Assembly: GCF_003334255.1 (NCBI RefSeq) | Contig: NZ_QOWU01000228.1 | Strand: one strand, 5' to 3' | DNA length: 510 nucleotides | Origin: Escherichia coli | Lineage (GTDB): Bacteria; Pseudomonadota; Gammaproteobacteria; Enterobacterales; Enterobacteriaceae | Notes under the pieces: model-generated | What the model saw: only the letters and a program-made list of their open reading frames with translations | Databases searched by the model: none | What the model was told of the DNA's origin: nothing | Made by a program: the position numbers and the translations under genes | Shown here: positions 1 to 510 of the stretch, piece by piece | Layout: each line of letters begins with the position of its first letter | Position numbering within the stretch: the first letter of the stretch is position 1

Positions 1-138
1 GGCCTTGAACTGAAAGCGCCTGTAACTGATGACATCAGCAGAGCACTGGCTTTTGCCATTAAGTGGGTGGCGGTCGGTGTTGCTGTGTCCCCGATGCTGT
101 ATGGGCTGGCAAAACTGGTCATTGCGTTGAAATCGTGA
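1..138 (+). CDS. 3' end of an unidentified ORF (5'-truncated by the window); C-terminal 45 aa with a hydrophobic, possibly membrane-associated tail
   Basis: Frame 1 is the only + strand frame open from position 1 (frames 2 and 3 hit stops within the first 30 nt). It translates to [45 protein letters not shown] and ends at TGA 136-138. The stop sits immediately before the RBS of the next gene, giving operon-like packing. No family recognised; it does not resemble the C-termini of lambda R or P22 gp19 endolysins as I recall them. Confidence 0.4.
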
Positions 139-139
139 A

Positions 140-146
140 GGGAGGA
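140..146 (+). promoter_or_regulatory. Shine-Dalgarno (GGGAGGA) for the small membrane protein gene
   Basis: GGGAGGA at 140-146, core GGAGG at 141-145, about 7 nt upstream of ATG 153. Strong match to the anti-SD complement with canonical spacing. Confidence 0.6.
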
Positions 147-152
147 TTAAGC

Positions 153-284
153 ATGTCAGACAAACTCATAACGCTGGCGAAGATCCTCTGTGTAATTGTC
201 GGCATTTCATTTTCACTAATGCTGGTTGCTCTTTTTCTTTCCATGGCCTGGATGATGTTGTCTTCGTCGGGGCTGCTGGGGTGA
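153..284 (+). CDS. Small single-pass membrane protein, 43 aa, function unknown (lysis-cassette-associated)
   Basis: ATG 153 preceded by a strong SD; stop TGA 282-284. Translation [43 protein letters not shown]: short charged N-terminus (D, K, K), then about 26 uninterrupted hydrophobic residues, then a short Ser/Gly tail, consistent with an N-in single transmembrane helix. The track ORF 63-284 shares this frame, but its first 30 codons start at GTG without an RBS and overlap the frame-1 ORF, so ATG 153 is the likelier start. Confidence 0.6.
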
Positions 285-295
285 ACATAAACCGA

Positions 296-510
296 ATGCT
301 TTCCGCGTTTATCGTTATTCTGCTGGTGGCCTGTGGAGCGCTGTGGATGGCAACAGACCATTACCGTGATAACGCGATTACCTACAAAGCGCAGCGCGAT
401 AACAAAGCCAGTGAACTGAAGCTGGCGAACGCAACCATTACTGATATGCAGGTGCGCCAGCGCGATGTTGCTGCGCTCGATGCAAAATACTCGAGGGAAT
501 TAGCCGATGC
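296..510 (+). CDS. Rz: Rz-type inner-membrane spanin (i-spanin), N-terminal part; 3'-truncated by the window
   Basis: Frame 2 from ATG 296 reads [71 protein letters not shown] and is still open at the window end. N-terminal hydrophobic signal-anchor ([18 protein letters not shown]) followed by a charged, helix-prone periplasmic region. From [14 protein letters not shown] to [13 protein letters not shown] it closely matches lambda Rz as I recall it (memory, not a database hit). Missing from the ORF track, presumably because it has no stop inside the window. An alternative in-frame start is GTG 281. Confidence 0.85.
493..498 (+). promoter_or_regulatory. Probable Shine-Dalgarno (GAGGGA) for the embedded Rz1-like gene
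   Basis: GAGGGA at 493-498 lies inside the Rz reading frame a few nt upstream of ATG 507. Lambda has AAGGAG at the equivalent position ahead of the Rz1 start (recalled). Confidence 0.4.
507..510 (+). CDS. Rz1: Probable start of the embedded o-spanin (Rz1-like lipoprotein) in the +1 frame of Rz; only the start codon is inside the window
   Basis: ATG at 507-509 is in frame 3, i.e. +1 relative to Rz. It spans the D and A codons of the Rz motif ELADA, which is where lambda Rz1 starts (MLKLKMM...) as I recall it. The coding body lies beyond the window, so the signal peptide and lipobox cannot be checked. Confidence 0.5.

Follow-up and report, generated by a model that had tools for sequence, protein, structure and literature searches.

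A small gene for a predicted single-helix membrane protein next to the i-spanin gene Rz in Shiga-toxin and related phages of Escherichia coli

An open reading frame (ORF) of 43 codons lies directly before the i-spanin gene Rz in the lysis cassette of a prophage of Escherichia coli 118UI. It was studied in a stretch of 510 bases, referred to here as the window, which corresponds to positions 5001-5510 of locus L001. The evidence discussed below makes it very probable that this ORF is a translated gene. Its product is predicted to be an inner-membrane protein with one helix. The protein evolves fast, selection acts on it chiefly to keep its length, its hydrophobicity and a small set of conserved residues, and it does not seem to be itself a holin, a spanin, a releasin or a known toxin. 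A role in the membrane steps of lysis, as an accessory that the phage can dispense with, is tentatively proposed. The existence of the gene is not new, since it is already present in RefSeq, in PHROGs and in a published list from ribosome profiling (RIBOseq).

The ORF and its predicted product

The gene and the features that belong to it are as follows (window positions; aa, amino acids; nt, nucleotides).

153-284, + strand: 43-aa ORF (WP_001280932.1; PHROG 4906; homologue of Sakai ECs_1966/XECs191), with ATG at 153, TGA at 282-284 and 43 codons
140-146, + strand: Shine-Dalgarno sequence GGGAGGA, 7 nt 5' of the ATG at 153, read from the sequence
183-257, + strand: transmembrane helix, approximately residues 11-35, predicted N-in and C-out, with the small-xxx-small face G17xxxS21

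A preliminary description of the window had proposed a small gene with a Shine-Dalgarno sequence, an ATG start and one hydrophobic helix, and all of these elements were found. The best 19-residue Kyte-Doolittle mean is 2.89, for residues 11-29, and AlphaFold2 gives a single helix from residue 2 to residue 38 with a mean predicted local distance difference test score (pLDDT) of 89. The only charged residues are D3, K4 and K10, and they are followed by 33 uncharged residues. Because the lysines are found only N-terminal of the helix, the positive-inside rule suggests an N-in, C-out (type II) topology. The sole cysteine, Cys13, is located in the middle of the helix and there is no lipobox. Approximately 8 residues extend beyond the helix, and the protein ends in the uncharged sequence LSSSGLLG. 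In the family K4, L5, G17, S19, F20, L24, V25, W33 and L36 are invariant and S21 is nearly so.

The preliminary description had also supposed that the gene was missed by annotation. This is not the case here. The Prokaryotic Genome Annotation Pipeline (PGAP) already annotates the ORF as WP_001280932.1, the Sakai homologue is annotated as ECs_1966, and the profile of PHROG 4906 (function unknown) matches residues 1-43 at positions 7-49 of 49 with E = 2.1e-23. Many phage GenBank records do omit the gene, however, among them those of Min27, VT1-Sakai and Phi24B. No literature text that names the peptide, WP_001280932.1 or PHROG 4906 was found; the gene is listed only in the supplements of Hücker et al. 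(2017, PMC5597208). A survey of Shiga-toxin (Stx) phage genomes makes no mention of the 43-aa ORF.

Conservation, selection and translation

Of 5426 complete E. coli genomes, 1750 (approximately 32%) carry the gene, at 4658 places and with up to 11 per genome. With the 43-aa query, tblastn matched 276 phage records, mostly Stx phages. The match covers at least 80% of the query in 276 of 276, and residues 1-43 are aligned in all phage records among the matches listed. At 90% identity the proteins form 129 clusters, all called 'hypothetical' and all from Escherichia wherever an organism is named. An exhaustive HMMER search over 1.84 billion representatives returned 29 matches, all of which belong to the same narrow family.

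The boundaries of the gene are kept in different surroundings. The gene upstream varies by lineage and is a 60-aa ORF, an ORF of approximately 30 aa or ant, and each provides a start signal at the same place. After the 60-aa ORF the signal is GGGAGGA. After the ~30-aa membrane ORF, which ends in ...LIxAIK(G/R), it is AAGGGG or AAGAGG. In the ant context of 933W-type phages the TGA of ant overlaps an ATG (TGATG) a few codons 5', and family codon 1 is ATA there; the 933W-type alleles begin 1-6 codons earlier than the window allele, which begins at family codon 1. The similarity to Stx phages starts precisely at codon 1; whether it ends right after the stop codon depends on the allele of Rz.

All 17 distinct DNA alleles have 43 aligned codons, with no indels or stops, and all have an uncharged core. 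Simulated random mutation seldom keeps both an open frame and an uncharged core (P = 0.011-0.31 per allele). In pairs of alleles with 25-34 differences the Nei-Gojobori ratio of non-synonymous to synonymous substitution rates (dN/dS) is 0.25-0.5 in frame, compared with 0.7-1.9 in the two shifted frames.

Translation of a homologue has been studied by strand-specific RIBOseq in E. coli O157:H7 Sakai, where it is listed as the translated small gene XECs191 (Hücker et al. 2017, PMC5597208). In LB its transcriptome value was 30.0 reads per kilobase per million mapped reads (RPKM), its translatome RPKM was 12.6, its ribosome coverage value was 0.43 and its coverage was 0.55. The verdict of the classifier was 'real', and an inner-membrane protein with one helix was predicted (PMC5597208). 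XECs191 is ECs_1966 in current RefSeq and is located in the Sakai prophage Sp10 between the antirepressor gene ECs_1965 and Rz. Ribosome profiling and conservation in synteny with Rz had both been put forward as checks in the preliminary description, and both came out in favour of the gene: there is RIBOseq support for the Sakai homologue, the gene is conserved, and Rz is adjacent in 89 of 96 loci.

Several observations limit this evidence. Over the 17 alleles the variable sites are distributed 26:25:31 by codon position, which is uninformative as a test of coding and points to weak constraint on individual residues. The allele at L093 3749-3880 differs from window 153-284 by 17 non-synonymous and 3 synonymous changes and has a dN/dS of 2.1, while in the same comparison the values are 0.09 for lysozyme, 0.23 for the 60-aa ORF and 0.33 for Rz. 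The L093 allele retains its length and hydrophobicity despite this ratio, and the 43-aa gene may be under diversifying or relaxed selection in this lineage. On the minus strand an antisense ORF of 80 aa (window 119-361) spans the entire 43-aa gene, and the equivalent frame is open in 10 of 10 alleles examined. The lack of stops in the 43-aa frame is not decisive by itself, since an antisense frame is likewise free of them in every allele tested. The antisense frame has its wobble positions in common with the sense frame, its start is not conserved and its length ranges from 68 to 123 aa, so that it looks like a compositional by-product and not a gene. The RIBOseq signal in Sakai is low and was obtained from uninduced cultures, and the gene is multi-copy in this strain.

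It is conceivable that the ORF has no function, being either the product of chance or what is left of a larger, degraded gene, and that it is carried along with Rz by hitch-hiking. The nearly uniform variability of the codon positions and the open antisense frame would fit this explanation, and so would the +2 frame, which is also open in some alleles, and the rare frameshifted or fused variants that occur. A weak similarity to the transmembrane segment of Rz (z up to 3.4) would also fit, but it is not significant after 20 comparisons. A non-functional ORF is not expected to have start signals at the same codon in three unrelated contexts or recombination junctions exactly at its start and stop. 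The absence of indels in the 17 alleles and the coverage of the 276 phage matches also argue against it, as do the hydrophobic core, which is kept more often than by chance, the dN/dS below 1 and below that of the shifted frames in most comparisons, and the strand-specific RIBOseq call. This explanation is hardly credible.

The similarity to Rz was examined by local alignments against five Rz N-termini, with shuffling. The highest value (p ~0.01) was obtained with lambda Rz only, and an origin of the gene by duplication of the Rz transmembrane segment is unsupported.

The lysis cassette and expression of the gene

The window is 100% identical to DNA of the Escherichia phages PhiR12_1, PhiR12_2 and PhiR12_5, and DNA of 100% identity is also found in prophages of hundreds of E. 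coli chromosomes. In L001 the annotated order is class II holin, YdfR-family gene, lysozyme R, 60-aa gene, 43-aa gene and Rz, with terminase genes further downstream. The cassette in the PhiR12_1 record has the same gene order. The positions in L001 are as follows.

3358-3573: class II holin
4266-4799: lysozyme R
4956-5138: 60-aa hypothetical gene (p60)
5153-5284: 43-aa hypothetical gene, WP_001280932.1
5296-5754: Rz, annotated as 'lysis protein'

The neighbouring features within the window are the following.

1-138, + strand: 3' part of p60 (WP_021566721.1, PHROG 1115), with the C-terminal transmembrane segment and the TGA stop at 136-138
296-510, + strand: 5' part of the i-spanin gene Rz (PHROG 13), from the PGAP ATG; it continues beyond the window end
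507-510, + strand: first ATG of Rz1 (embedded o-spanin, +1 frame, lipobox VVSAC), truncated by the window end; a homologous ORF is found in L003

The N-terminus of lysozyme R is MNAKIRYGLSAAVLALIAAGAP and contains a Gly/Ala-rich segment. Gly/Ala-rich N-terminal segments have been described for the signal-anchor-release (SAR) endolysins of Stx phages (PMC8136144), and lysozyme R of this cassette would be a SAR endolysin as well. Rz1 is intact in the +1 frame of Rz. Since the holin, lysozyme, Rz and Rz1 are all intact, this is a complete lysis cassette of the phage-21/933W type. The idea of a decayed prophage in the preliminary description was not borne out, and identical DNA occurs in propagated phages. 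The tiny ORF had also been said to take the place of endolysin R. It does adjoin Rz, but R is present approximately 350 nt upstream, and the ORF belongs to an insert that separates R from Rz. The statement that the preceding ORF is not the C-terminus of an endolysin was correct; the frame at window 1-138 is the C-terminus of the 60-aa membrane ORF.

A second part of the cassette is also variable. In L001 the region between holin and endolysin (3578-4160) is occupied by the YdfR/DUF1327 gene and, in the opposite orientation, a hypothetical gene of 90 aa. In L003, L085, L086 and L089 the holin abuts the lysozyme. The gap between holin and endolysin is another variable insertion point.

A scan of the + strand from R to Rz found no sigma-70 consensus promoter, although such a scan cannot exclude weak or non-sigma-70 promoters. 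The sole terminator-like site (L001 4890-4922) is located upstream of the 60-aa ORF, and there is none after the 43-aa gene. Since there is no consensus promoter on the + strand and a terminator lies upstream, expression should need antiterminated late transcription. The simplest reading of these signals is that the gene would be expressed with the lysis genes from the Q-antiterminated late transcript. The GC content at third codon positions (GC3) of the gene is 0.59, like that of the neighbouring genes, and there is no compositional anomaly.

The terminator-like site is part of a conserved non-coding stretch of 156 nt (L001 4800-4955) that extends from the endolysin stop to the 60-aa ORF and lies approximately 50-200 nt before the window start. 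The stretch is also found at L093 3390-3545 and at approximately 2830-2990 of the Salmonella locus L099. At its end is a strong hairpin that resembles an intrinsic terminator, AAAACCCCGTTTG...CAAGCGGGGTTTT, with a T-run. The hairpin is kept in L093 and in Salmonella, and where E. coli has a G-T pair L093 has an A-T pair. The stretch is conserved also behind a different endolysin, a GH19 enzyme. No Rfam family matches the stretch, which may be a regulatory leader or the 3' end of a short transcript.

Relation to Rz and the start of Rz

A sample of 96 loci, mostly near-identical loci of the window type, was used to examine the position of Rz. The conserved Rz motif lies within 110 nt of the 43-aa stop in 89 of them. 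In 4 others the distance is approximately 290 nt, with additional small membrane ORFs in the gap, and 2 lack the motif. In the window the 43-aa stop is 11 nt 5' of the ATG at 296, which PGAP uses as the start of Rz, and overlaps an alternative GTG. Both relations had been recognised in the preliminary description.

281-283, + strand: GTG in frame with Rz, overlapping the 43-aa stop as GTGA; probable Rz start of the window allele

Other Rz alleles start at the ATG of MNRVLC. The window allele has ATA at this codon and a GTG two codons 5'. GTG 281 is probably the true start of Rz, and Rz is probably coupled translationally to the 43-aa ORF. This start is favoured because the usual ATG is ATA here and because it retains the conserved Asn-Arg before the Rz transmembrane segment. 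The PhiR12_1 GenBank record places the start of Rz at window 347, and a protein begun there would lack the transmembrane segment. For the window-type allele the annotated start of Rz is probably wrong.

The overlap with Rz leads to a different explanation for the ORF. The peptide could be functionless, and the ORF could be kept as a coupler that delivers ribosomes to Rz after an insertion broke the ancestral stop-start overlap of endolysin and Rz. This would agree with the GTGA overlap in the window allele, with the stop located 7 nt before the Rz ATG in the other allele, with the lack of a good Shine-Dalgarno sequence for window-type Rz and with the weak residue constraint. However, the other Rz allele has a Shine-Dalgarno sequence of its own, AAGAGAG, and no special RNA structure was found around the Rz start (folding z = -1.0). 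The 43-aa gene is also intact in loci without a following Rz and in loci in which other ORFs lie between the two genes. The uncharged hydrophobic core and the invariant G17, S19 and F20 are kept across alleles with dS values up to approximately 0.8, which is not expected of a peptide without function. A role in coupling only is decidedly unlikely. An RNA element in place of a gene was also considered and was rejected, as Rfam gave nothing relevant and the folding at the Rz start was unremarkable.

A possible accessory role in lysis

What could a protein of this kind do in a lysis cassette? It is possible that the 43-aa protein would be made from its own strong ribosome-binding site in the late (lysis) transcription unit of the phage, and that ribosomes ending the ORF would be passed to Rz, whose start overlaps or abuts the stop. 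The protein would be an inner-membrane single helix with almost no soluble part and would act helix to helix through the G17xxxS21 face. Because it is just a helix with this conserved face, helix-helix contact would be its only plausible action. Candidate partners are the phage-21-type class II holin, the membrane-tethered endolysin or Rz, and contact with the partner would tune the timing or efficiency of lysis. We infer the N-in topology, the late expression and any effect on lysis. An accessory role in lysis is consistent with the position of the gene, co-oriented inside an intact holin-lysozyme-Rz/Rz1 cassette, and with the unrelated small membrane ORF p60, which holds the same pre-Rz position in Salmonella prophages.

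Other results are harder to reconcile with a role in lysis. An endolysin-sized ORF is found directly before Rz, with no small ORF, in 132 of 143 classifiable lambda-type and Salmonella-type loci, which agrees with the statement in the preliminary description that the endolysin is next to Rz in canonical lambda-type cassettes. The 43-aa gene is at most accessory, because most Rz loci have this arrangement. In the Qin prophage of K-12 rrrQ abuts rzpQ, with no 43-aa-type ORF between them. A divergent member of the family, P0124, is found in a phiP27-like phage after ant and a ~30-aa ORF, with no adjacent Rz. The lysis genes of this phage are Phage_holin_8, Phage_holin_3_7 and a GH108 endolysin, and downstream of P0124 come a small lipoprotein-like ORF (PHROG 7528), HNH and terminase genes. 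Searches of NCBIfam and of PDB sequences with the 43-aa protein gave no match. The transmembrane segment of Rz tolerates replacement, which would argue against a specific partner helix in Rz. Two further ideas were rejected, one of a universal 'slot' before Rz, in view of the 132 loci, and one of a K-12 homologue with a known name, in view of Qin.

It has also been considered that the gene is moron-like cargo that is unrelated to lysis. The junction between R and Rz would then be an insertion hot spot, the 43-aa gene would move with other cargo (ant, the 60-aa ORF and the ~30-aa ORF) and the protein would act on the host membrane, for example in superinfection exclusion, or would block a membrane protein of the host or of a competing phage. 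The junction does host variable non-lysis genes such as antirepressors, and the 43-aa gene is coupled translationally to ant in 933W-type phages. The joint movement of ant, the ~30-aa ORF and the 43-aa ORF into the phiP27-like phage without an adjacent Rz also points in this direction, and so does the fact that most Rz genes are without the 43-aa gene. Fast amino-acid evolution, with dN/dS above 1 in one lineage, is expected of a conflict gene, and the low RIBOseq signal came from uninduced lysogens. However, the gene has no promoter of its own by the consensus scan and no terminator after it, the sole terminator being upstream. Its GC3 is like that of its neighbours, in 89 of 96 loci it lies close against the start of Rz and it has no PADLOC hit (no family among the defence profiles at E <= 1). 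Cargo unrelated to lysis is somewhat unlikely when judged by itself, and it is nearly as likely as a role as a lysis accessory, which is tentatively preferred here.

Other small membrane ORFs at the R-Rz junction

Several unrelated small hydrophobic ORFs occur at the junction of R and Rz in a minority of phages. The 60-aa family (PHROG 1115) is located directly 5' of Rz in the Salmonella loci L098 and L099 (3001-3192 in each), which have no 43-aa gene and have different holin and endolysin types upstream. In Salmonella L100 (3001-3192) the 60-aa family follows a third holin/endolysin type and no Rz follows. In L101 and L102 a 66-aa relative of the 60-aa family follows tail-fibre genes instead. 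A PHROG 4493 paralogue and a 35-aa hydrophobic ORF are also found directly before Rz in a few loci. In L155 and L170 (approximately 1400-1505) the 35-aa hydrophobic ORF, MGATMSMICFFMAALLAFNGNDAWPWFLAVGVLMS, has an overlap of 4 nt with the start of Rz; this is a further unrelated small ORF at the junction.

In phage vB_EcoS-783R2 (L087 1817-2380) four consecutive small membrane ORFs are found between lysozyme R and Rz. These are a ~30-aa ORF (PHROG 6632), the 43-aa ORF, a 38-aa fragment of the 60-aa family and a 28-aa paralogue (PHROG 4493). The array looks like the result of duplication and recombination. In the phiP27-like prophage of L091 (3861-4322) the module of ant, the ~30-aa ORF and the 43-aa ORF comes after a GH108 endolysin and is followed by a 51-aa ORF with the lipobox LLVGC (PHROG 7528), with no recognisable Rz.

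A broader and rather doubtful suggestion is that the 43-aa protein, the 60-aa family and other small pre-Rz ORFs make up an unrecognised class of bare-helix microproteins of lysis cassettes, coupled to the i-spanin gene, which would tune the last membrane steps. If so, they would tune holin triggering, endolysin release or spanin activation in Stx and related phages, and the timing of toxin and virion release could be affected.

Significance

The 43-aa gene is found in approximately one-third of complete E. coli genomes and in most sequenced Stx phages. The carriers include Phi24B, Min27, the Sakai prophages and Shigella Stx phages. It is located in the operon that governs the time of cell burst and the release of toxin and virions. 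If the protein modulates lysis, a component would be added to one of the best-studied lysis systems, which would also be relevant to the kinetics of Stx release. As cargo, it would be one more fast-evolving phage membrane microprotein. A useful outcome is a cleaned-up annotation, with a real gene, a fixed start and stop, an Rz start that is probably GTG 281 and a record of the omissions in several phage entries.

Comparison with known systems

Holin, spanin, endolysin-accessory and toxin roles received no support from any sequence-family test. Pfam gave no hit for the 43-aa protein at E <= 0.001, the best being DUF3930 at 0.095, and its only PHROG hits are families of unknown function. Holins have a charged hydrophilic C-terminal tail and are usually encoded just upstream of the endolysin, whereas the 43-aa protein has an uncharged end and its gene is downstream of the endolysin. 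It matches no holin family profile, and the cassette already has a class II holin.

The i-spanin Rz is predicted to be N-in, C-out like the 43-aa protein, the two genes are adjacent and there is a faint likeness between the helices (LCVIV and LCVVI). An i-spanin needs a periplasmic coiled-coil that reaches the o-spanin, however, and only approximately 8 residues of the 43-aa protein lie beyond its helix. Unlike the neighbouring Rz, it does not match the PHROG spanin families. The u-spanins and o-spanins carry a lipobox cysteine, which the 43-aa protein lacks.

Antiholins and related regulators, such as lambda S107, phage 21 S71, T4 RI, P1 LydB and P2 LysA, are small membrane proteins that tune lysis by binding to the holin. 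S107 and S71 arise from alternative starts of the holin gene, RI works through a periplasmic domain and P2 LysA is a multi-pass membrane protein of approximately 140 aa. The role proposed for the 43-aa protein is of the same kind, but it has no homology to any of these proteins and no soluble domain.

The releasin gp25 of phage Mu (DUF2730, 99 aa) is a non-holin membrane protein that is encoded near the endolysin and spanin genes and aids lysis with a SAR endolysin (PMC9239132). It is N-out/C-in with an acidic cytoplasmic domain of 73 aa and occurs in transposable phages only (PMC9239132). The predicted topology of the 43-aa protein is the opposite, and it has no such domain and no Pfam hit.

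The type I toxins Hok/Gef, Ldr, TisB, Ibs and ShoB are also hydrophobic single-helix peptides of less than 50 aa and are often found in prophages. The 43-aa protein resembles them in size and in its single very hydrophobic helix, and with its location in a lysis cassette this leads to the idea of a toxin-like or holin-like peptide that damages and depolarises the inner membrane. There is no Pfam hit to the Hok, Ldr, TisB, Ibs or holin families, however, and Rfam antitoxin RNA families do not match on either strand. In a scan of L001 3200-6400 the sole antisense promoter-like hit near the gene (4992-4963) lies inside p60, approximately 160 nt upstream, and does not face the 43-aa ORF. The gene also differs in that it has no module of its own and lies inside a late operon. 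It has neither a charged C-terminal tail nor a dual start, a class II holin is provided by the cassette, and up to 11 copies are carried per genome. A membrane-damaging peptide is very improbable.

The genes of the 60-aa family (PHROG 1115, with the paralogues PHROG 4493/3246) also lie between the endolysin gene and Rz, and their products are likewise small type II membrane proteins. These are unrelated in sequence to the 43-aa family, and the 60-aa protein has a charged cytoplasmic head of approximately 35 residues and a weaker C-terminal helix. PHROG 4906, WP_001280932.1 and ECs_1966 belong to the same family as the ORF of the window and nothing structural differs between them; the Sakai homologue is located between ant and Rz.

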